This document shows positions 3,030 through 61,602 of a stretch of 64,000 bases of DNA, in pieces (position 1 is the first letter of the stretch; each line of letters begins with the position of its first letter). Source of the DNA: an uncultured virus (IMG/VR IMGVR_UViG_3300024358_000470) (Duplodnaviria > Heunggongvirae > Uroviricota > Caudoviricetes); the IMG/VR virus record IMGVR_UViG_3300024358_000470; one strand, written 5' to 3'. The translations under genes and the position numbers were made by a program. The notes beneath the pieces are model-generated. The model had not been told where the DNA came from. It saw only the letters and a list, made by a program, of their open reading frames with translations, and searched no databases.

Positions 3030-3578
3030 ATGGACGCGCAAGAATTTCGTAGTCTTCAAGAAGCATATATGGAAGTTGTTGAGGGTGCCTCAGGAGATGT
3101 TGCTGATAGAGCAGCAAAACTTGAAAGGCAAAAAAAGGGACAAACTCCCGAAAGACAGGAGATGTATAGGAAACTTAAAAATAAAGCACGATCAAGAGAA
3201 GAAGAACCAGAAACTATAAAACGACATCAATCTCTTGGACATAAGGGGGGAGGTACTTTTGGTGCTGGTGGGCATATGAGAACTGGAATGACTCAATCGG
3301 ATAGAGACAGAAACAGAGAAGCAGCAGCAACAAGATCTAGACGACTTTCTCCTTATGATCCAAAATATAAAAAACATACAGAAGGTTCTGGAACAGTAAC
3401 CAAAAATCCTAAGAAACTTCGTAAGCAACAAGCGATGGGTGAGATTGGAGAAAACTTTGACCTTTACGATATTATCCTCTCACACTTACTTGATGAAGGA
3501 TATGCTGAAACACCAGAAGCAGCAGAAGCAATTATGGTGAATATGAGCGAAGAGTGGAGAGAGAGTATTATTGGTTGA
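3030..3578 (+). CDS. Late modular protein (DEGYA-motif family), probable virion-internal protein
   Basis: Shares LLDEGYAET..A.AIM.NMSEEWR and TKNPKKLRKQ.AMGE modules with 10982..12187. Confidence 0.7.
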   Translation: MDAQEFRSLQEAYMEVVEGASGDVADRAAKLERQKKGQTPERQEMYRKLKNKARSREEEPETIKRHQSLGHKGGGTFGAGGHMRTGMTQSDRDRNREAAATRSRRLSPYDPKYKKHTEGSGTVTKNPKKLRKQQAMGEIGENFDLYDIILSHLLDEGYAETPEAAEAIMVNMSEEWRESIIG

Positions 3579-3644
3579 TAAATATTAGTGCTTGTTTGTG
3601 GTTATTCAAGCAAAGGATTGGGGGCAGAAATGCTCCTTTTCTTT
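3579..3644 (+). ncRNA. Putative antisense small RNA or anti-RBS leader of GIY-YIG gene
   Basis: TAAATA, hairpin TGCTTG/CAAGCA, terminator GGGGCA-GAAA-TGCTCC-TTTT; 3592-3605 is complementary to 3656-3669. Confidence 0.55.
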
Positions 3645-3652
3645 TATAAATA
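3645..3652 (+). promoter_or_regulatory. T4-type late promoter
   Basis: TATAAATA upstream of GIY-YIG ATG 3675. Confidence 0.8.
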
Positions 3653-3674
3653 ACTATAACCACAAACAAAGCAG

Positions 3675-4082
3675 ATGGAAAGGTATTACGTTTACGCTTA
3701 TTTGCGTGAAGATAGATATTCTCCTTACTACATTGGGAAAGGTTCTGGATTTAGAGACACAAATAAAAGAAAGTTAGGATTAGCTCAACGACCTCCTGAT
3801 AGAGATAGAATAGTAAGAATAAAAGAAAACTTAACAGAACAAGAAGCATTATCTTTGGAAATAGCACTCATAAAGTTTTGGGGTAAAAAAGATAGTGGTG
3901 GTGTATTGGTTAATAAAACCGATGGTGGTGAAGGTACTTCTGGATCAAAAAGAGATAAAGCGTCAAGACAGAAAACCGGTATGTCTATGAAGGGGAAACC
4001 TGCTTGGAACAAAGGTATGAAGTTTCCTCCTGGAACATTTGGAAGACCAGTTAAGAATAATGTAGTAGAAACCACACTTTAA
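3675..4082 (+). CDS. Free-standing GIY-YIG homing endonuclease with NUMOD3-like motif
   Basis: YVYAY...PYYIGKG...R, EALSLE, LVNKTDGGEG, C-terminal KGKPAWNKG. Confidence 0.85.
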   Translation: MERYYVYAYLREDRYSPYYIGKGSGFRDTNKRKLGLAQRPPDRDRIVRIKENLTEQEALSLEIALIKFWGKKDSGGVLVNKTDGGEGTSGSKRDKASRQKTGMSMKGKPAWNKGMKFPPGTFGRPVKNNVVETTL

Positions 4083-17894: not shown

Positions 17895-18308
17895 ATGATT
17901 TTTAATGAGTTGAATGAGGATAATTTTATATTATTCGCTATTAAACATTATGAAAATCCTCAAGCAGTAACCAAAGAAGATTTTGAAAAGGATTTAAATC
18001 ATTTCAAATATATTAAAAGATTATTGAAACGATATAAGAATACTGGTCAGTTAAAAACTCACCTTCTTCTTAATCATTTTATTATTCTTTATAATATTTT
18101 TGGGGAGGCAGCAACTCCAATGCTTTTCTATAAAATAGAAAGAGAGTTGTGGTCTGCCATGAAAACCTTCATTATTTTTCTTAATAGGTTACCCGAATAT
18201 CCAAAATGTTATATACATGATATTCAAGTTGACATAAACTGCCTCTCTGAACTCTATAAAATCTACAATGGAAAAGAAGAAATTGGACTGGATAATTCAA
18301 ATAGTTAG
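17895..18308 (+). CDS. Hypothetical protein (T4-like phage type)
   Basis: FAIKHYENPQ...FKYIKRLL...LLLNHFIILYNIFG. Confidence 0.8.
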   Translation: MIFNELNEDNFILFAIKHYENPQAVTKEDFEKDLNHFKYIKRLLKRYKNTGQLKTHLLLNHFIILYNIFGEAATPMLFYKIERELWSAMKTFIIFLNRLPEYPKCYIHDIQVDINCLSELYKIYNGKEEIGLDNSNS

Positions 18309-23585: not shown

Positions 23586-23747
23586 ATGTCTAAAAATCAA
23601 CTGACTAAAGATGAAATTAAAGTTCGTGTTTTGAAATTAAAAGACAATCTTTATAAAGATCATATTAGACCCGAAATGGATATGAAAGGACTTGCTCATA
23701 AATATCTGAACGAAGTTCTTGATATTATTGATGAGTACAGATATTGA
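23586..23747 (+). CDS. Small hypothetical protein
   Basis: 53-aa MSKNQLTKDEIKVRVLKLK... read manually. Confidence 0.6.
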   Translation: MSKNQLTKDEIKVRVLKLKDNLYKDHIRPEMDMKGLAHKYLNEVLDIIDEYRY

Positions 23748-24174
23748 CTATGAGAATCCTTGGACCTACAATGGAAAAGAATTTGGTTCGAGTGATATTC
23801 AGGATTATTTTGGTTTCGTATATCATATTCATTGCAACAAAACTAATCGTGACTATATTGGTCGAAAATATTTCTGGAGCTTCCGCACACCGAGAGGAAA
23901 ATCTAGAAAGGTTAAGGCAGAATCTGATTGGAAAAAATACTATGGTTCATGTCCAGAACTCAAAGAAGATATAGAGAAATATGGTAGGGAGAATTTTACG
24001 CGCACTATTTTATCATTACATAAAACAAAGGGCAAAACAAACTTTGAAGAAACAAGGCAACTCTTCTTCAACAATGTTCTCACAGAATCCCTTGACAGTG
24101 GAGTGCCCAGATACTACAATAGCAACATCCTCAACAGGTACTTCCGAAAGGACTATTATGAACGCAACGACTGA
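23731..24174 (+). CDS. SegE-like GIY-YIG endonuclease
   Basis: GFVYHI...DYIGRK, YYGS, YNSNI. Confidence 0.7.
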   Translation: MSTDIDYENPWTYNGKEFGSSDIQDYFGFVYHIHCNKTNRDYIGRKYFWSFRTPRGKSRKVKAESDWKKYYGSCPELKEDIEKYGRENFTRTILSLHKTKGKTNFEETRQLFFNNVLTESLDSGVPRYYNSNILNRYFRKDYYERND

Positions 24175-24334
24175 AGATATTGTTGCTCATGTTAGGTCAT
24201 GGTCTCTTGACCGTGCCGCTGATATGAGCATTCCTAAAGAGGATGCACGCGCAATTCTTGCTGAGTTTTATGAGTGGATTGAACCGGAAGATGATGAACT
24301 TGAGATTGTCTCTCTAGAACCTGAAGATTACTAA
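24158..24334 (+). CDS. Hypothetical protein
   Basis: MNATTEDIVAHVRSW... ATG at 24158. Confidence 0.6.
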   Translation: MNATTEDIVAHVRSWSLDRAADMSIPKEDARAILAEFYEWIEPEDDELEIVSLEPEDY

Positions 24335-24364: not shown

Positions 24365-24547
24365 ATGACAGAACAGCAGCAACATCTACAACAACTTTTA
24401 GAACAAAGAGTTAAACTTGAATCAGAAATTAATCAAAACAGAGAACTTTTTTGGAAAGTTCAAGGAGCTATTGAGTATCTAACACAAATTGGAGTTACTT
24501 TGCCAGAGCCAGAATCCAAAGAAACTTCTGAAGAAGTGGAATCTTGA
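24365..24547 (+). CDS. Hypothetical coiled-coil protein
   Basis: MTEQQQHLQQLL...KVQGAIEYL. Confidence 0.65.
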   Translation: MTEQQQHLQQLLEQRVKLESEINQNRELFWKVQGAIEYLTQIGVTLPEPESKETSEEVES

Positions 24548-24572
24548 CAGATTCTAAATAAAAACTTATAAT
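24544..24572 (+). promoter_or_regulatory. sigma70-type promoter
   Basis: TTGACA-17 nt-TATAAT. Confidence 0.8.
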
Positions 24573-24701
24573 GTTTATAACCCACCATAAGGTGGGTTTT
24601 CTTGTAATGAGACTTTGAGTGACAATTAGAGCCGTGGAAAGTGCCCTTTGAGAAAAGGGTGTACCCCCTTTCTATACGGATGTAGAGTTCAATTAATTTT
24701 A

Positions 24702-25355
24702 ATGCTAAACTTCTTTACTGTAGCCGTTCCTCTTTTAGCAATGGTTACAACCAATACGGCATCACTGCCTTTCTCTAGTTATAAACTGCAAGGTCCTCCT
24801 CCCCCAGTGGATGAAAAACCTTATTCTATTATTAAAGAGTTTGAACCCGAGAAGACAGCAATCCTAGAGGTTGCACCACCAAAGCCAAAAGAGAAAAGAC
24901 TAATTTGTAAAGGGTGTAATGAACATGAGAATGCTACCCTGGCATTTTTCCAGGATCGTGGTATTAGAGACAGAAACGCCCTTGCTACCATCATGGGCAA
25001 TATTAGACAGGAATCAACATTCGTGCCTAACATTTGTGAAGGTGGTAGTAGAACCTCATACTATAATTGTGGAAGAGGTTATGGTTTGATACAATTTACT
25101 TCTGCTTCTCGTTATTATGGACTGGGTGCTTTTGCTAAAAAAATAGGAGGTAATCCTTCTACTGCTGATACTCAACTTCGGTATATTACTACTGAACCAC
25201 AATGGAAGAGTATTGAAAACAGAATGAAAGTTTCTGGAAAATCTATTGATAGGTATATGAATTATGCCTACGAATGGATTGGATGGGGACACCATGGAGC
25301 AAGAACACAATATGCTTATGACTATGCTAAACGATTGGTTCTTGCTGATGTCTAA
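24702..25355 (+). CDS. Phage-tail-lysozyme-like muramidase with signal/anchor N-terminus
   Basis: ALATIMGNIRQES...GYGLIQFT; hydrophobic N-terminus. Confidence 0.7.
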   Translation: MLNFFTVAVPLLAMVTTNTASLPFSSYKLQGPPPPVDEKPYSIIKEFEPEKTAILEVAPPKPKEKRLICKGCNEHENATLAFFQDRGIRDRNALATIMGNIRQESTFVPNICEGGSRTSYYNCGRGYGLIQFTSASRYYGLGAFAKKIGGNPSTADTQLRYITTEPQWKSIENRMKVSGKSIDRYMNYAYEWIGWGHHGARTQYAYDYAKRLVLADV

Positions 25356-25420
25356 ATAACTTTACCTGACTTGCTGACACTTTTCAGGTGGGATTGGAGT
25401 GCTTCGGCACTCCTTTCTTG
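25353..25420 (+). ncRNA. Putative antisense small RNA or anti-RBS leader of GIY-YIG gene
   Basis: TAAATA, hairpin ACCTGA/TCAGGT, terminator GGAGTGC-TTCG-GCACTCC-TTT; 25366-25379 is complementary to 25433-25446. Confidence 0.55.
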
Positions 25421-25428
25421 TATAAATA
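25421..25428 (+). promoter_or_regulatory. T4-type late promoter
   Basis: TATAAATA upstream of ATG 25453. Confidence 0.8.
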
Positions 25429-25452
25429 GTAATGTCAGCAAGTTAGAGTAGT

Positions 25453-26112
25453 ATGAAACACTTTTATGTGTATTATTCCTATGAGGAATATGGAAGAGGT
25501 TATATTGGAAAAAGAGAATGTAAATGTCTTCCAGAAGAAGATGTAAGTTATTTTGGAAGTTTCAAAGATAAAACTTTCAATCCAACTCAAAAAATAATAT
25601 TAGAAACTTTTGGGAGTGTTGAAGAAGCACTTGAAGCAGAATGTGCTCTCCACGATTTTTATGAAGTAGATAAAAATCCACACTTTGCTAATAGGGCAAA
25701 ACAAACTTCTACTGGATTTTATTGTAATAAAGGTGCTGGTGAAGAAGCAAACAAGAAAAGAAGTGAGTTGATGAAAACAGAATACAATCCTATGAGTAAT
25801 CCAAAACTCAAAGAGAAAGCAAGAAAAAACTTGATTAGAACTTTGAGTAATCCAGAAATGAGAAAACTAAAAAGTAGAGTTGGAAAGAAAGCACACAATC
25901 GTCCAGAAGTAGTTGAGAACCATAGACAGGCAGCACTCAAATCTCATCAAAATCCAGAAACAAAAAGAAAACATATTGAGGCAAAACTTGGTGAGAAAAA
26001 TCCTTGTTATGGTAAAAAGTGGATTACAAATGGAAATGAAAACAAATACATAAACTCTATTGATGAAGTTCCAAGTGGTTTTTGGTATGGTAGAGTTTTC
26101 ATAAATACCTAA
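25453..26112 (+). CDS. Free-standing GIY-YIG (Seg-like) homing endonuclease
   Basis: YVYYSY..GRGYIGKR, YFGS, EALEAE, FANRA; basic helical repeats, GEKNPCYGKKWITNG tail. Confidence 0.85.
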   Translation: MKHFYVYYSYEEYGRGYIGKRECKCLPEEDVSYFGSFKDKTFNPTQKIILETFGSVEEALEAECALHDFYEVDKNPHFANRAKQTSTGFYCNKGAGEEANKKRSELMKTEYNPMSNPKLKEKARKNLIRTLSNPEMRKLKSRVGKKAHNRPEVVENHRQAALKSHQNPETKRKHIEAKLGEKNPCYGKKWITNGNENKYINSIDEVPSGFWYGRVFINT

Positions 26113-26127
26113 AAAGTACTTATAAAG

Positions 26128-27330
26128 ATGCAGTTTCAAGAAGAAATCCTTGATGAAAGGACTTTGATGGTAGGGAAAAAAGTTAGACCTTCCGGAACTA
26201 TGAATATGCGTGGATCAGAAGGTGCCGCGAGAAAAGATGTTTCTCGTGCGGGGTTTAGGAAAAAAGGTCCCATTCAAGATCCAAAAGTAGAAAAGAGTGG
26301 AAAAGATGTTCCTGTTTGGGTAAGAACTCATAAGTCTCCTGGAGATTATGCTGCTCATACTGCAAGAAAGCAACATAGAGAGGGTGATAAGCCACAGAGT
26401 AAAGAATTAAAAAAACAGTTTGGTAAAACTGGTGCTAAGAAAGATTCTCCAGTTCATGATATCACTGTTGGTTCTCCAAAATCTAAAGTAAAAGATCCCG
26501 GACAAAGAGCAAGACAATTTGTTGGTGCTCTCAAAGGCGTAAAAGATACTATGAAGTCAAAGAAAGGAGTTGCTACAAATACTCCTACTGCTATTGATTC
26601 TGCTAAGTCTAAGGGTAAAAAGAGTAGAAGTGGTGAGGAAGGTGCAGAACAAAGAGGTAGAATTTATAAGAAACTAGGAATGGGAGAAAGAAATCCCAAG
26701 ACTGGTGTTCAGATGGCGAAGTTGAGTGATTCCTTTAATGGAAAAACTTTTAGTGAGTTTATATATGAGTGTTATATTATTTTAGAAGCAAGAAAATATA
26801 CTAGAATCCGTTCTAGAGAAGATGCTGAGAAAATTCGACAATCACAAGAAAATCCAAATGCTTATAGATTAAAAAATAGACAAACTGCAGAAACTCCATA
26901 TTGGGGACTAGAATCCAAAGAAAAAAGAAAAGACCAAGATGAAAGGAGAAAAGAAAATCTAAAAGCGATTAGTCATAAAGAGTTGGAAGATCATTGTAAA
27001 AGAAATTTGCATCCGGGTGATTGTAAAAAAAATGCGAATAGAGCATTAAGAATTGAAAGGGGAAGGAAAAAGTCTCAAAGAGATGAGGCAAAAAGTAAGT
27101 CTCAGGAAACAGGGCAAAAGCATGATGTAGATCATATTCAAGCACAACCAAATAGAAGAAGTGAAACAACAAAATCAAGATTTCAAGCAATTCATCCGGG
27201 TGATTCTTCTGATAATAGGAGAGTAATTCCAAGTAGAGAAAATCGTGAAAAAAATTCTAGTAATACTGAAAAATCAACGACTAGATCTGGTGCTCTTATG
27301 AGAGCCCTTCAAAGAGCTAGACAAAAATAA
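26128..27330 (+). CDS. Basic two-module late protein with C-terminal HNH-like motif
   Basis: Internal KTFSEFIYECYIILEA; HDVDHIQ...N.R....N. Confidence 0.6.
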   Translation: MQFQEEILDERTLMVGKKVRPSGTMNMRGSEGAARKDVSRAGFRKKGPIQDPKVEKSGKDVPVWVRTHKSPGDYAAHTARKQHREGDKPQSKELKKQFGKTGAKKDSPVHDITVGSPKSKVKDPGQRARQFVGALKGVKDTMKSKKGVATNTPTAIDSAKSKGKKSRSGEEGAEQRGRIYKKLGMGERNPKTGVQMAKLSDSFNGKTFSEFIYECYIILEARKYTRIRSREDAEKIRQSQENPNAYRLKNRQTAETPYWGLESKEKRKDQDERRKENLKAISHKELEDHCKRNLHPGDCKKNANRALRIERGRKKSQRDEAKSKSQETGQKHDVDHIQAQPNRRSETTKSRFQAIHPGDSSDNRRVIPSRENREKNSSNTEKSTTRSGALMRALQRARQK

Positions 27331-27781: not shown

Positions 27782-27863
27782 GGGTAGGTGTCCGAGTGGT
27801 TAATGGAGGCGGACTGTAAATCCGCTGGCTCTGCCTACGGGGGTTCAAATCCCTCCCTGCCCA
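27782..27863 (+). tRNA. tRNA-Tyr(GUA)
   Basis: Cloverleaf, loop CTGTAAA, long variable arm. Confidence 0.93.
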
Positions 27864-27866
27864 CCT

Positions 27867-27938
27867 GGTCCCTTCGTCTAGCGGTTAGGACACCACCCTT
27901 TCACGGTGTAGACACGGGTTCGATTCCCGTAGGGACTA
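27867..27938 (+). tRNA. tRNA-Glu(UUC)
   Basis: Loop CTTTCAC, GGTTCGATTCC. Confidence 0.92.
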
Positions 27939-27940
27939 TT

Positions 27941-28032
27941 GGAAGTGTGGCAGAGAGGTCTAATGCAGTGGATTGCTAATCCGCCGATGTACCTAAGTGC
28001 ATCCGTTGGTTCGAATCCAACCACTTCCGCCA
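27941..28032 (+). tRNA. tRNA-Ser(GCU)
   Basis: Loop TTGCTAA, long variable arm, encoded CCA. Confidence 0.93.
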
Positions 28033-28104
28033 GGGAGATTAGCTCAGTGGTAGAGCAATGTGCTGATAACGCAGAGGTCGGTGGTTCAAATCCACCATTT
28101 CCCA
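28033..28104 (+). tRNA. tRNA-Ile(GAU)
   Basis: Loop CTGATAA, canonical D and T arms. Confidence 0.92.
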
Positions 28105-28139
28105 CTTGACCAGTTTCCAAACAACTGGTACAATATAAG

Positions 28140-28204
28140 AGTTGAGAAATCAACTGCGGCATTCCCCTTCGGTAGGTTCAGGAATGGCGGCGATAGGAAC
28201 CTAC
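28140..28204 (+). ncRNA. Putative hairpin plus H-type pseudoknot RNA
   Basis: CATTCC/GGAATG and GTAGGTTC/GAACCTAC interleaved; downstream of promoter TTGACC-17 nt-TACAAT. Confidence 0.45.
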
Positions 28205-28209
28205 TTTAT

Positions 28210-28282
28210 GGGCACATAGCATAATGGATAATGCAACATCCTTCTAAGATGACGATTGGGGGTTCGAGTCCCTCTGTGCCTG
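28210..28282 (+). tRNA. tRNA-Arg(UCU)
   Basis: Loop CTTCTAA, GGTTCGAGTCC. Confidence 0.9.
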
Positions 28283-28365
28283 TTGGAGTTTATCTCCATA
28301 CATAAAAGTGATAGAGGGTAAGCCTCTGTTATATCCTTATGAGGTATATTACGCTTACTCCATCT

Positions 28366-28448
28366 GCTTCAGTGGTGGAACGGTAGACACAGCGGACTTA
28401 GAATCCGCCGCCTTAAAAAGCGTGGAAGTTCAAATCTTCTCTGGAGCA
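28366..28448 (+). tRNA. tRNA-Leu(UAG)
   Basis: Loop CTTAGAA, long variable arm. Confidence 0.92.
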
Positions 28449-28487
28449 CTTGACAATCAAACTTAAATAGTTTATGATTGTCTCATT

Positions 28488-28559
28488 GCGAAAGTAACTC
28501 AACGGTAGAGTCCCTGCCTTCCAAGCAGGTTGTTGCGAGTTCGAATCTCGTCTTTCGCT
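28488..28559 (+). tRNA. tRNA-Gly(UCC)
   Basis: Loop CTTCCAA, U73. Confidence 0.93.
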
Positions 28560-28599
28560 CTTGGTAGTCGTTATGCAGATAGCATAGAAAGACGCCAAA

Positions 28600-28669
28600 G
28601 GAAGTTAAGTCAAAGAATCGAGACAAGCAGACAATGCCCTTTGAACTGGTGTAAGTCCAGTAACTTCCT
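28600..28669 (+). ncRNA. tRNA-like RNA lacking a D-arm
   Basis: Acceptor GGAAGTT/AACTTCC plus T-arm ACTGG-TGTAAGT-CCAGT; TCAAAG/CTTTGA stem. Confidence 0.45.
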
Positions 28670-28673
28670 TTAT

Positions 28674-28746
28674 TCCCATCGACCGAGCAAGCGAACGGGC
28701 CTGACTGTTAATCAGAGATTGGTAGGGGCAGTACCTACGATGGGAG
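28674..28746 (+). tRNA. tRNA-Asn(GUU), atypical T-loop
   Basis: Acceptor TCCCATC/GATGGGA, loop CTGTTAA, T-loop GGCAGTA. Confidence 0.75.
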
Positions 28747-28749
28747 CTT

Positions 28750-28821
28750 GCCCGAATAGCTCAAAGGCAGAGCGTTTCGTTTACACCGAAAATGTTGGGG
28801 GTTCAAGTCCCTCTTCGGGCA
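28750..28821 (+). tRNA. tRNA-Val(UAC)
   Basis: Loop TTTACAC, GGTTCAAGTCC. Confidence 0.9.
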
Positions 28822-28875
28822 CTTTACTAAAACGAATACTTGTGTTATAAATAATAAAAGGTATTCGGTTCTATT

Positions 28876-29412
28876 ATGACTACTTGTTTAAACTGCGGGT
28901 GTGAGAACGATAAACCTAAGTTCTGCTCCCGTTCGTGTTCTGTAACCTATAATAATAAGAAGTCTCCTAAGAGGAAAAGAACTGGTTGGGACACCGCCAT
29001 CTGTAATTACTGCAGTGTAGAGTTTGACTATAAGAAAAAGAGTTCTACTGGCAAGTTCTGTTCTAACAAGTGTAGTGCTGCAGCCAAGAGACAATGGACA
29101 ATAGATAAGTGGAAAGTAGGAGAACTGAACCATACAGGGCAGGGTTATGTTCCCAGCGGTGTTCGTGCTTACTTATTAGAAGCGAGTGGGGGTAAGTGTT
29201 CCCTTTGTGGTTGGTCTGGAACAAACATTCATACCGGACGAACCTGCCTTGAGGTGGACCACATAGACGACGACCCTTTCAACCACGCCCCTGAAAATCT
29301 ACAAGTGGTCTGTCCCAACTGCCACGCACAAAAAACTTTACCACCCCAAAAGAGTAACGGTGGACGTTACAGTAAGGACAAGCAACATCCTAAGTTTTGT
29401 ATGAATAAGTAA
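28876..29412 (+). CDS. HNH homing endonuclease with N-terminal Zn-finger repeats
   Basis: CxxC/FCSxxC repeats; CSLCG..LEVDHID..N..ENLQVVCPNCH; TATAAATA at 28846. Confidence 0.9.
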   Translation: MTTCLNCGCENDKPKFCSRSCSVTYNNKKSPKRKRTGWDTAICNYCSVEFDYKKKSSTGKFCSNKCSAAAKRQWTIDKWKVGELNHTGQGYVPSGVRAYLLEASGGKCSLCGWSGTNIHTGRTCLEVDHIDDDPFNHAPENLQVVCPNCHAQKTLPPQKSNGGRYSKDKQHPKFCMNK

Positions 29413-59330: not shown

Positions 59331-59475
59331 ATAGTTACAATCATAACTGATTCTTGATCTTAAATGGTCTGAATCTACATAGTCCGAATCCTCTGTGATT
59401 CGGTGATTACTTTACTTTTAAACATAACTTCGGTTTGTTTTGTTTAGTACACACTGAACTCACAGAGGACTTTCT

Positions 59476-61602
59476 ATGTCTTACGCTACAAGGGCGCTTG
59501 CTGTAGCGTCTGCTCTTTTAATGGGGGCATCAACAGCAGCATTAGCAGAAACAATATCTGGAACAGATTTCGAGACTGGAGATACTTCAGGATGGAATAC
59601 TGGAACTCAAACAGGAACATTAGATGCCACAATCGACGGAGGAGGAACTGGTGTTAGTGTCGTAGATAATCCAGTTATCTTTAATGCCGGTTCTTTCCCA
59701 GCACAAGGAAGTCCAACATTACAAGATGGTTCTCCTAATCCATATTACGCACCCGCAGTAACACCAACCACTTGGGAGTTTGCTCCTTACGGAACCGCAG
59801 GTGCAGCACTACAACCAAATGGACAGCAAACATTCGACCAGGCAACAGAAGCACTTGGTTTAACCGCAGAACAAAATCAAGCAATAAGAGACCTTCTTAT
59901 TCAACAGCAACAAGCATCTGGACTTGGAAATCCAAATCCTACTGATGCTGCTTGGATTACAAAATCAGTCACTTTGGAGACTGGAAAAGTTTATACAATG
60001 TCTTGGAACTACATTGGAACGGACTATGTTCCTTTCAATGATGGTTCTATTACTTCACTTGTTTATCAAGGAACTGGAACTTCTCCATCAGTAACAGTTA
60101 ATAACCAACTTCAAAACTATGCATTACTTGGATTTACTAATCCAGGAACTGGTGATTATTCAACAGGTTCTTTTGGTTCTACTGGATGGCAGTATTCAAC
60201 TTATCAAGTAGGTGCTAATGGTGATTATCTCTTGGGATTTGCAGTATTCAACCTTGGAGATACCGCACTATCACCAGTTCTTTTAGTTGATAGTCAACCT
60301 GGAACTACAACAGCAAATGGTGAAGAATTCACTCCTGTTGCTCCAAATAATCCAGATGCTCCATCTGTTGATGAGGTAGCACCAACTCCAACTCCTACAC
60401 CAGAGCCAACTCCTGAACCTACACCAGAGCCAACTCCCGAACCAACTCCTGAACCTACACCAGAGCCAACTCCCGAACCAACTCCTGAACCTACACCAGA
60501 ACCAGAACCAACACCAGAGCCAACTCCTGAACCCACTCCTGCTCCTGCTCCTGAACCTACACCAGAGCCAACTCCTGAACCACAACCACCAACATTATTA
60601 AACTCTGTGACTGTTCCTGCACCAGGACTTCCAGTTGTTGTTACCACAGAAGTAACTCATAAGGCATCTGAGAAGGATGGAGTTCAAAAGATTAGAAGAG
60701 ACTTTGCAACCACAACTCAAACTCCTTTATTAAGACAGGATACTTATAGTGATGGAACCGTTGTAGCATCATTACTTCTTTCTGTTGATATTGAAAATAA
60801 TCATGATGTTCTTTCTGGACGCACTGACCAGCATGAAGTTTTAGATAAGATTGGTGGTGGATTACAAAATCTGTTTATTTACGAACCAACTGAACCAACC
60901 ACAGACAGAGTAAGAGTATTCAATAACAACTATTATGCCTGGTCTTCTGGTGATTATGGATACAATGGTAAGACTTTAATCATTGGTGGTGGATTAGAGA
61001 TTGATATTAAACCAACCTGGACTATAGGTGGTCAATATAATAATATGAACATTGATTTGGGTGGTGTTGATAGTACTTCTAAACTCCTCAAAAATCATTA
61101 TGGAATATTCAATATGTTCCGTGGAAATACATTCTCACTCTTAACAAATGCTGGATACTCCCAGAACAAATATAATGTATCCAGAAATGTTCAGAGTGTC
61201 TTCAATAATGAAAGTTCAACAGAAGGAAAAGAGTGGTTTGTAAATAACAGACTATTCTGGCATCTCAATAAGAATGTAACTCCATTTGTTGGATACACTG
61301 TTGGTAACTATCAGAGAGATGGATTTACTGAGAAAGGTTCTATTCAATCCAGAAGAACTGTTGATGCTATAAACAAAACTTCACATTCTGGTGAGGTAGG
61401 TCTAAATATTTCACACCGTTTTGGTGGAAAGAAAAAGGATTTATTTGGAGTAACTATTGGTGGTTCTTATGAAACCAGTGGAATGATTGAAGCATCTGCT
61501 TCTGTTGATTATAAGGAAATGGTTATTATTGAAGGAATACATCAAATTAATGATGGAGTTTCTAACACAGCAGTATCTGCAAAACTTAAATTTAAGTTCT
61601 GA
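59476..61602 (+). CDS. Autotransporter-like secreted protein with PEPT linker and C-terminal beta-barrel
   Basis: Signal peptide, (PEPT)n linker, amphipathic beta strands, terminal KLKFKF. Confidence 0.7.
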   Translation: MSYATRALAVASALLMGASTAALAETISGTDFETGDTSGWNTGTQTGTLDATIDGGGTGVSVVDNPVIFNAGSFPAQGSPTLQDGSPNPYYAPAVTPTTWEFAPYGTAGAALQPNGQQTFDQATEALGLTAEQNQAIRDLLIQQQQASGLGNPNPTDAAWITKSVTLETGKVYTMSWNYIGTDYVPFNDGSITSLVYQGTGTSPSVTVNNQLQNYALLGFTNPGTGDYSTGSFGSTGWQYSTYQVGANGDYLLGFAVFNLGDTALSPVLLVDSQPGTTTANGEEFTPVAPNNPDAPSVDEVAPTPTPTPEPTPEPTPEPTPEPTPEPTPEPTPEPTPEPTPEPEPTPEPTPEPTPAPAPEPTPEPTPEPQPPTLLNSVTVPAPGLPVVVTTEVTHKASEKDGVQKIRRDFATTTQTPLLRQDTYSDGTVVASLLLSVDIENNHDVLSGRTDQHEVLDKIGGGLQNLFIYEPTEPTTDRVRVFNNNYYAWSSGDYGYNGKTLIIGGGLEIDIKPTWTIGGQYNNMNIDLGGVDSTSKLLKNHYGIFNMFRGNTFSLLTNAGYSQNKYNVSRNVQSVFNNESSTEGKEWFVNNRLFWHLNKNVTPFVGYTVGNYQRDGFTEKGSIQSRRTVDAINKTSHSGEVGLNISHRFGGKKKDLFGVTIGGSYETSGMIEASASVDYKEMVIIEGIHQINDGVSNTAVSAKLKFKF
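60380..60590 (+). repeat. Coding tandem repeat encoding (PEPT)n
   Basis: ACACCAGAGCCAACTCCTGAACCT-like units. Confidence 0.9.

Follow-up and report, generated by a model that had tools for sequence, protein, structure and literature searches.

A modular, probably regulatory cassette with matched complementary arms before homing-endonuclease-like genes of a T4-like cyanophage

The DNA analyzed here, referred to as the window, is a stretch of 64,000 nucleotides from the uncultured virus record IMGVR_UViG_3300024358_000470 (minus strand of G000:C1:135214-199213). The record is a single contig of 204,829 bp with 36.7% G+C and belongs to a T4-like cyanomyovirus. Genes in the window include those for ribonucleotide reductase, primase, Hsp20, a RegA-like protein and lysozymes as well as a tRNA cluster, and the nearest named DNA matches are the Synechococcus phages S-SRM01, DSL-LC02/03 and S-PM2; the phage is a freshwater T4-like cyanophage. 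Our subject is a cassette of about 105 nt between a lysozyme gene and an open reading frame (ORF) for a homing-endonuclease-like protein, which by its sequence is a portable control unit in front of that ORF. Homing endonucleases need enough expression to spread and not so much that the phage is harmed, and T4 meets this dosing problem with a hairpin in which the ribosome site stays hidden until the late stage of transcription. The cassette is a modular unit, present in dozens of loci with many matched seed/leader pairs.

Elements and fold of the cassette

The upstream neighbor is a 235-amino-acid (aa) tail-lysozyme ORF (24648-25355, PF18013), and the TAA of its stop codon is at the same time the start of the TAAATA (25353-25358) in the first element of the cassette. 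This element, the P1 box (TCTAAATA, 25351-25358, plus strand), is a candidate weak late promoter. It is followed on the same strand by a 5' hairpin (25364-25389), in which ACCTGA (25364-25369) pairs with TCAGGT (25384-25389) and a 14-nt loop, CTTGCTGACACTTT, carries the variable seed. After GGGATT (25390-25395) comes an intrinsic terminator (25396-25419), composed of GGAGTGC-TTCG-GCACTCC (25396-25413) and TTTCTT, which was also called by a consensus scan. P2, a late promoter of the T4-type consensus (TATAAATA, 25421-25428), and the leader target (25433-25450), which holds a conserved purine tract, AGAGTAG, just before the start codon, complete the unit. An earlier note on this DNA had listed TAAATA, the hairpin, GGGATT, the terminator, TATAAATA and the leader pairing, and direct reading located all of them at the coordinates it gave.

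The leader target is complementary to an anti-leader arm (25363-25379, plus strand), recognized by pairing, folding and covariation, and the two form the 3' and 5' arms of a long-range helix. Positions 25366-25379 (CTGACTTGCTGACA) and 25433-25446 (TGTCAGCAAGTTAG) make 14 pairs, one of them G.U, and past a bulged A at 25447 the helix continues with TAC (25363-25365) against GTA (25448-25450). The duplex covers the conserved AGAGTAG tract and stops 2 nt before the ATG at 25453. When 25340-25475 (136 nt) was folded as one RNA, the long helix (25362-25381/25428-25451) enclosed both the terminator and the promoter, with a minimum free energy (MFE) of -44.8 kcal/mol as compared to a mean of -27.8 kcal/mol for shuffled sequences (z -4.8, none of 200 shuffles as good). 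The RNA 25364-25420 folded alone gives the 5' hairpin and the terminator (-22.9 kcal/mol, z -4.5), and the P2 leader alone is unstructured (z -0.08). No Rfam family reached its gathering threshold in 25250-25550, the best scores being those of mir-1006 (17.8 bits, threshold 64) and TarB (15.5, threshold 80).

The ORF behind the cassette (P0001, 25453-26112, plus strand) encodes 219 aa and had been named GIY-YIG endonuclease 2 in the earlier note. It matches PHROG 314 'homing endonuclease' (E 4.9e-12) and is 48% identical to S-PM2p178, the gene adjoining F-CphI. Its N terminus is GIY-YIG-like, with YVY...(9)...YIG at residues 5-19, and Y5, V6, Y7, Y17, I18 and G19 are invariant in 19 relatives. 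A Pfam search returned no GIY-YIG match, with NUMOD3 below the cut-off (E 0.0017), and a sequence search of the PDB gave no relevant match. In an hhalign comparison with the SegE-type ORF of the window, the YIG heptad alone was aligned (probability 0.4). The AlphaFold model is mediocre (predicted local distance difference test score, pLDDT, 65.8); its best Foldseek match, a GIY-YIG-family protein, is insignificant (E 0.54), and the I-TevI catalytic domain in the top row of VIA-align (Z 4.7, root-mean-square deviation 3.8, 63 residues aligned) is tied with unrelated folds. The motif and PHROG 314 agree with the earlier name, the best fold matches are GIY-YIG domains but weak, and we describe the predicted protein as homing-endonuclease-like with a GIY-YIG-like motif.

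The cassette occurs three times in this genome. A covariance model built from relatives found exactly these three sites in the 204.8-kb record at E <= 1, and all three precede a homing-endonuclease-like ORF. Copy 1, the existence of which had been implied by the earlier note, lies at 3577-3677 on the plus strand (MFE -38.1 kcal/mol, z -4.1; covariance-model match E 1.1e-7). It consists, all on the plus strand, of P1 GATAAATA (3577-3584), a hairpin and arm GCTTGTTTGTGGTTAT (3590-3605) with the local stem GCTTG/CAAGC, a terminator (3620-3644), P2 TATAAATA (3645-3652) and the leader ATAACCACAAACAAAGC (3656-3672), and is followed by a 135-aa ORF (3675-4082, ATG 3675; PHROG 314, E 4.7e-5). The third copy, outside the window at G000:C1:73173-73278 (minus strand), precedes a 261-aa ORF. 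The cognate arm/leader duplexes of the three copies (-22.2, -25.7 and -24.4 kcal/mol) are the strongest upstream/leader duplexes at the 17 TATAAATA boxes of the record, the next being -18.5. A crude duplex scan of 589 ORF starts, restricted to ORFs of at least 60 aa, puts them in 4th, 7th and 15th place, which is extreme but not unique. Cross pairs between the copies reach -3.7 to -9.9 kcal/mol, and by computed duplex energy the three co-resident copies are mutually orthogonal.

Conservation, insertion borders and late boxes

Protein-guided IMG/VR scans with the three ORFs gave 80, 26 and 37 loci. The 127 rows with a match that reached the N terminus were examined, after 16 other rows had been dropped: L007, L019, L083, L103, L107, L131-L133 and L140-L145, in which the N terminus was missing or there was too little upstream DNA, and L136-L137, which are identical to L134/L135. 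Two of the 127 rows had too little upstream DNA, 21 were without the two-box cassette (11 short-variant loci, nine loci without a cassette and the degenerate L129) and 104 carried it. Among these 104 there are 58 distinct cassettes, spread over about 27 upstream contexts, and covariation was counted on a MAFFT alignment of the 58, to which the following numbers refer.

In the arm-leader helix, 85.9% of the cells are paired, as compared to 66.5% in shuffled and 28-40% in slid alignments. Changes on both sides occur in 218 cells versus 70.6 in shuffles, a number reached by none of 500 shuffles, and they affect 13 of the 18 pairs. G.U pairs are tolerated, for example UG in 8, GU in 25 and GU in 26 cells. 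The local 5' hairpin is paired in 90.5% of the cells (79.7% shuffled, 4-39% slid) and shows 44 cells changed on both sides versus 8.3 in shuffles, at five of its six pairs. Because the helix and the local hairpin both covary on the same 5' strand, this strand has two conserved, mutually exclusive partners. The alignment indicates that both pairings are kept by compensatory change and are under selection. Cognate duplexes average -24.9 kcal/mol (standard deviation 2.5), versus -10.8 kcal/mol (5.4) for non-cognate ones.

These data refute chance complementarity in AT-rich intergenic DNA, to which we assign a negligible probability even though the genome has a low G+C content and equally good scores occur at some other ORF starts in the crude duplex scan: the arm-leader helix and the 5' hairpin covary in the 58 cassettes, z-scores are below -4, and the covariance model finds exactly the three known sites. 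The earlier view that a shared scaffold with different matched arm/leader pairs is hard to explain by chance is upheld by the same observations.

The remaining parts of the unit vary little. P2 is TATAAATA in 57 of the 58 cassettes. P1 belongs to the class NATAAATA in 40 and to NCTAAATA in 18, and is never N[GT]TAAATA; its variants are GATAAATA (17), AATAAATA (13), TCTAAATA (8), CCTAAATA (7), TATAAATA (6), CATAAATA (4) and ACTAAATA (3). In 56 of the 58, P1 is separated from the hairpin by 5 nt. By this comparison, P1, the terminator and P2 are invariant parts of the unit. A complete cassette is also present in a cultured phage, the freshwater Synechococcus phage S-SRM01 (L231 296-397; MW015081.1 ~17954-18055), which is grown on Synechococcus sp. 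KCZYC6. There, TGATAAATA is followed by the hairpin ACCTGATCGGGTGACACTTTTCAGGT, a terminator, TATAAATA and a leader with the complementary sequence, and the gene behind the cassette, QPX47995.1, is annotated 'nuclease associated modular domain 3 protein'. A short variant (L062-L074), found before relatives 42-47% identical to the window ORF, has the form GGTGGAAGT-AATATAAATA-CTTCCACC, i.e., a hairpin with a late box in its loop. It has neither terminator nor upstream box, and its stem stops short of the AUG.

The borders of the inserted unit were defined from IMG/VR alleles, as the named phages S-SRM01 and DSL-LC03 have different downstream genes at the lysozyme locus. Endonuclease-less alleles of this locus read stop codon, TACAATAGAATAAATA, terminator, (T)ATAAATA and next gene. 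One of them, L161, has the next gene of the window (MQFQEEILDE, ATG 26128) with the same leader and the box TTATAAATA, and its homology to the window resumes at ATAAATA(T/C)CTAAAAAGT. The corresponding box in the window, P3 (CATAAATA, 26101-26108, plus strand), lies within the last endonuclease codons and serves as late promoter of the downstream 400-aa gene (ATG 26128). Because homology to L161 resumes at P3, the inserted unit has a late box on either side. Paralog contexts of the copy-1 locus that lack the endonuclease end in GGTTGATAAA(C/G/A), and the carrier has GGTTGATAAATA, which is microhomology at the box. In one metatranscriptome run (X2), a low-depth RNA-library contig that covers 26068-26097 departs from the window at 26097, close to where the endonuclease ORF ends, and continues with unrelated letters; it may come from a co-occurring strain in which the junction differs. 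A promoter of the downstream gene embedded in an endonuclease ORF, as in the window, has been described for segG, segA, segE, mobB and mobC of T4 (PMC2988022).

Cassette and ORF are not tied to each other. The same cassette and seed stand before different endonuclease ORFs (L185 and L174 versus L148) and once occur without an ORF (L205), and endonucleases that are about 91% identical have different arms (window copy versus L009). That the cassette travels with mobile nucleases, as the earlier note had proposed, agrees with the sequence data: it occurs in about 27 upstream contexts, and the same cassette is found before different endonuclease ORFs.

Use of the boxes as late promoters was examined in the whole record. 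The TATAAATA octamer occurs seven times in the window, always on the plus strand, and 17 times in the record, 13 of them on the gene strand; for 12 of these 13, the first ATG of an ORF (60 aa or longer) follows at a distance of 10-40 nt. In this genome TATAAATA boxes thus appear to behave as T4-type late promoters. NATAAATA is the late promoter of cyanomyoviruses according to section 10 of a published study (PMC2984593). Genome-wide ratios of gene strand to other strand are 41:2 for NATAAATA (in the form [ACG]ATAAATA), 20:3 for NCTAAATA and 50:46 for N[GT]TAAATA, and about half of the NATAAATA and NCTAAATA boxes lie 10-40 nt before an ORF start. Many late leaders of the record have ACTAAAAAGTATT in common after the late box.

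At 27329, AATAAATA is directly followed by a terminator hairpin (GAGGAGAGCGGTTGCTACTCCTC and seven U), and ATG 27367 comes right after the U tract. As read from the sequence, this box is the only possible promoter for the gene at ATG 27367, which implies that non-consensus boxes work as promoters in this phage. If late transcription began about 6 nt past the box, its start would be within the terminator stem, and the transcript would escape termination. The same module occurs behind the lysozyme gene of relatives that lack the endonuclease, among them L159 and L164.

Several other features of the window concern nucleases or RNA structure. A SegE-type GIY-YIG ORF at 23697-24174 (PF19835, E 6.9e-53), with CATAAATA 26 nt before its ATG at 23731, is without a lock cassette and overlaps the ORF 23981-24334 by about 190 nt. 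An HNH endonuclease ORF (28846-29412, PF01844) starts 54 nt after tRNA-Val, with TATAAATA between it and the tRNA cluster; the cluster comprises nine tRNA genes (27782-28822), and the window has four further tRNA genes at other places. In front of a 708-aa ORF without a PHROG match (59476-61602) is a strong long-range RNA structure (59376-59482; MFE -37.6 kcal/mol, z -5.8). Its stem pairs 59389-59405 with 59452-59469, and an outer stem takes in the AUG; the loop is without a late box, and the structure may be another translational mask.

Possible modes of action

We propose that the cassette keeps the homing-endonuclease mRNA poorly translated by pairing of the upstream anti-leader with the leader and the ribosome-binding region. 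The order of elements would be P1, 5 nt, the seed-displaying hairpin, the terminator, P2, a leader complementary to the 5' strand and loop of the hairpin, and the AUG. Because a perfect sigma-70 consensus promoter (TTGACA-17-TATAAT, 24544-24572) lies before the upstream lysozyme gene, early transcripts would plausibly approach the cassette. Perfect TTGACA-N16-18-TATAAT sites occur six times in the window, all on the plus strand (24544, 27743, 32841, 33050, 49221 and 56241), where 0.05 would be expected. Transcripts from upstream would either stop at the terminator or read through with the ribosome-binding site (RBS) buried in a helix of 17-20 bp, as in the cis lock of T4 I-TevI, and from the sequence such a lock is plausible for the window copy.

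The second half of the proposal concerns late transcription. P1 would fire late and, together with the terminator, give a discrete RNA of about 56 nt (25364 to ~25419); such an RNA is predicted because the loop of the long helix contains a terminator, a P1 box lies upstream, and the hairpin displays the seed independently. Its target in trans would be the otherwise open leader of the P2 transcript, which arises simultaneously at a distance of 70 bp, and the pairing would limit or shorten endonuclease synthesis. With its own seed, each cassette would avoid cross-talk between co-resident copies. The sequence features that point to a discrete RNA, i.e., the spacing of P1, the covarying hairpin and the terminator of its own, are real but indirect. 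In the same direction point the occurrence of P1 in all 58 cassettes across about 27 upstream contexts, its membership in the two gene-strand-biased box classes, one of which is the published cyanophage late promoter, the unstructured P2 leader and the box at 27329. We give even chances to a dual-mode lock, in which read-through transcripts would be controlled in cis and P2 transcripts in trans. The more specific possibility that each nuclease gene has a programmable late small RNA (sRNA) of about 56 nt, made from P1 with a loop seed and its own terminator, is put forward more tentatively, at slightly below even chances. By pairing in trans this sRNA would act as an incoherent feed-forward 'leash', so that nuclease is made only in a pulse or at a low dose, and seeds would diversify to keep co-resident or co-infecting cassettes orthogonal.

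A rival explanation is a pure T4-type cis lock. In that case the arm would mask the RBS in upstream transcripts that escape the terminator, only P2 transcripts would be translated, without control by a free RNA, and P1 would be a leftover or a generic boundary box. There is precedent in I-TevI, I-TevII, I-TevIII, segB and Aeh1 mobE, as covered in section 12 of PMC2988022, and in cyanophage-like endonuclease genes, as covered in section 14 and supplementary Fig. S4 of PMC2677866. The read-through RNA folds into the long helix, and a perfect early promoter stands before the upstream gene, although the terminator lies between this promoter and the endonuclease ORF. What a pure cis lock leaves unexplained is the fixed 5-nt distance of P1 in about 27 contexts, the second, independently covarying and competing partner of the 5' strand, and the constancy of a terminator that removes most of the transcripts to be locked. 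The published simple hairpins, moreover, are without P1 box, terminator and second hairpin. We consider a pure cis lock possible, with a probability appreciably below one half. The earlier note had read the cassette as an antisense element and had left the T4-type precedent unconsidered. Its proposal of orthogonal RNA regulators travelling with mobile nucleases stands with respect to orthogonality and mobility, but an independent trans-acting RNA does not follow from the pairing, which a T4-type cis lock predicts as well.

A number of observations weigh against the trans-acting part of the dual-mode lock. The arm-leader helix is already explained by a model that acts in cis only. P1 is mostly non-consensus, being TATAAATA in only six of 58 cassettes, and its presence in 58 of 58 is partly by construction, as detection required an upstream TAAATA; by eye, the sole long-type cassette without P1 is the degenerate, decaying L129. 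In alleles without the endonuclease, TAAATA-like boxes are likewise present behind the stop codon, which fits a pure cis lock. Because of these boxes and the microhomology at the left junction, P1 could be a gene-boundary or recombination feature instead of an sRNA promoter. Seeds are shared by many cassettes, and the own leader is therefore the best or tied-best partner of an arm in no more than 33 of the 58 cases. The entropy of seed columns (1.11-1.29) exceeds that of linkers (1.00) only marginally. The idea of hypervariable seeds was dropped, since all eight close pairs with divergent seeds go back to one swap, GCTGACA -> GTGTGGTA.

The region just after the boxes was likewise considered as a possible sign of transcription starts. 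Positions 5 and 6 after P1 and P2 are T in 54 and 55 of 58 cassettes and purine in 56 and 57 of 58, respectively. A T-purine initiator was dropped as promoter evidence, as 35 other late-type boxes of the genome are A-rich at these positions; the shared T-purine is not a general initiator in this genome and could reflect pairing, which is a further point against a small RNA made from P1. The suggestion that complementarity begins exactly at both predicted starts was also rejected: it holds roughly for P2 (position 5 in 34 of 58), and for P1 the beginning is spread from -2 to 8.

The ~56-nt RNA is a prediction from sequence, and contigs of four metatranscriptome runs (X1-X4) bridge 24626-26097 or more without a break. 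The stretch is present in 18 riverine metatranscriptome runs (X1-X18), and the four examined are assembled contigs that carry no starts, ends, strand or level and favor no model.

The inverted repeat might, on the other hand, act as DNA, either as an operator at which the endonuclease represses its own gene or as a recombination or cruciform element that aids movement. I-TevI does repress itself at an operator that overlaps its own late promoter, as described in section 10 of PMC2988022. The arms of the cassette flank P2, the late boxes P1 and P3 (26101) bracket the unit, and the left junction has microhomology. Arms and protein do not vary together, however, because the same arms occur with different ORFs (L185 and L174 versus L148) and different arms with endonucleases that are about 91% identical (window copy versus L009). 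For this reason, and because the helix tolerates G.U pairs, which are meaningful in RNA and not in a DNA duplex, we consider action as DNA very improbable. The location of the complement, which covers the RBS side of the leader, also disfavors it.

If the small RNA of the dual-mode lock is real, T4-like phages would use trans-acting sRNAs, and the cassettes would be the first such regulatory family there. They would account for the dosing of selfish nucleases and provide a natural library of orthogonal pairs of RNA regulator and target. If no such RNA is made, the cassette would still be the best-covarying example of a T4-type lock, and endonuclease insertions in cyanophage metagenomes could be annotated with its help.

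Comparison with known systems

Small RNAs with a comparable layout are known from bacteria and plasmids. In the type I toxin-antitoxin pairs tisB/istR-1 and zorO/orzO, an adjacent, partly complementary sRNA represses a toxic gene, and the plasmid antisense RNAs of CopA/CopT and RNAI/RNAII have a loop seed. If the 56-nt RNA exists, the cassette shares with these systems a short terminator-ended RNA beside its target, a complementarity of 15-20 nt to the 5' untranslated region (UTR), a loop seed and specificity variants. In contrast to type I systems, the window cassette would target a 219-aa nuclease instead of a small membrane peptide, its regulator would be arranged in tandem on the same strand and not divergently or with overlap, and both promoters would be of the phage late type. 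Membership in the type I toxin-antitoxin class was considered and rejected, the targets being nuclease-like proteins of 135-261 aa with no small hydrophobic peptide among them.

Mobile regulatory cassettes of T4-type phages were reportedly described by Arbiol, Comeau and Krisch in 2010 as PeSL, for 'promoter-early stem-loop'. These are said to be short modules of early promoter and hairpin that recur at many gene boundaries, may mediate shuffling and are without complementarity to the downstream leader. The window cassette is likewise a short promoter-and-hairpin module that recurs at gene boundaries, but has late-type boxes and leader complementarity. The region before the upstream lysozyme gene (24544-24598) is itself reminiscent of PeSL modules: the sigma-70 promoter has TCTAAATA within its spacer and a hairpin (24579-24598) behind it, so that early and late promoter overlap and a stem-loop follows.

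For the T4-like cyanophage S-PM2, a non-coding RNA of about 225 nt, CfrI, has been reported in connection with a homing-endonuclease gene (Millard et al. 2010; section 14 of PMC2984593). The link to such a gene in a T4-like cyanophage is shared with the window cassette. CfrI differs in being a true cis-antisense RNA on the opposite strand, whereas the RNA predicted for the window is on the same strand. The region upstream of F-CphI in S-PM2 has a terminator and TTATAAATA and no anti-leader arm. Neither the three-part cassette nor a small RNA made from it was found described in a literature search that mostly did not extend to subscription journals, and no usable cyanophage data on transcription starts or sRNAs turned up in it. 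The S-SRM01 genome paper does not mention late promoters, small RNAs, hairpins or words beginning with 'transcriptom-'.

The closest relatives of the cassette are the translational locks of endonuclease genes. In T4 I-TevI, I-TevII, I-TevIII and segB and in mobE of Aeromonas phage Aeh1, an RBS-burying stem with a nested late promoter is described in section 12 of PMC2988022. The window cassette has in common with these the homing-endonuclease gene downstream, the stable stem that buries the RBS, the position of TATAAATA between the arms, so that late transcripts are without the 5' arm, and the presumed end, restricted nuclease synthesis. It differs in that a complete intrinsic terminator is part of its loop, another late-type box is located 5 nt before the 5' arm, this arm forms a covarying hairpin of its own, and the arms are exchangeable seeds in a conserved scaffold that moves among about 27 loci. 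Dassa et al. (2009) studied 16 endonuclease genes of cyanophage-like 'fractured gene' loci and reported a hairpin in the 5' UTR of 15, ten of them with TATAAATA (section 14 of PMC2677866), and the sequences in supplementary Fig. S4 of that paper are simple, with the order arm-TATAAATA-arm-ATG. Cyanophage-type endonuclease genes, a complementary stem just before the AUG and TATAAATA in the loop recur in the window cassette, whereas those published hairpins are without terminator, upstream box and separate 5' hairpin, and the endonuclease families differ, one being Vsr-like.

The core logic of the cassette, an RBS-masking stem with a TATAAATA late promoter within, is already known. Judged from the aligned cassettes, what is new compared to these systems is the terminator in the loop, the invariant NATAAATA/NCTAAATA box 5 nt before the arm and the covarying hairpin that would display the seed.

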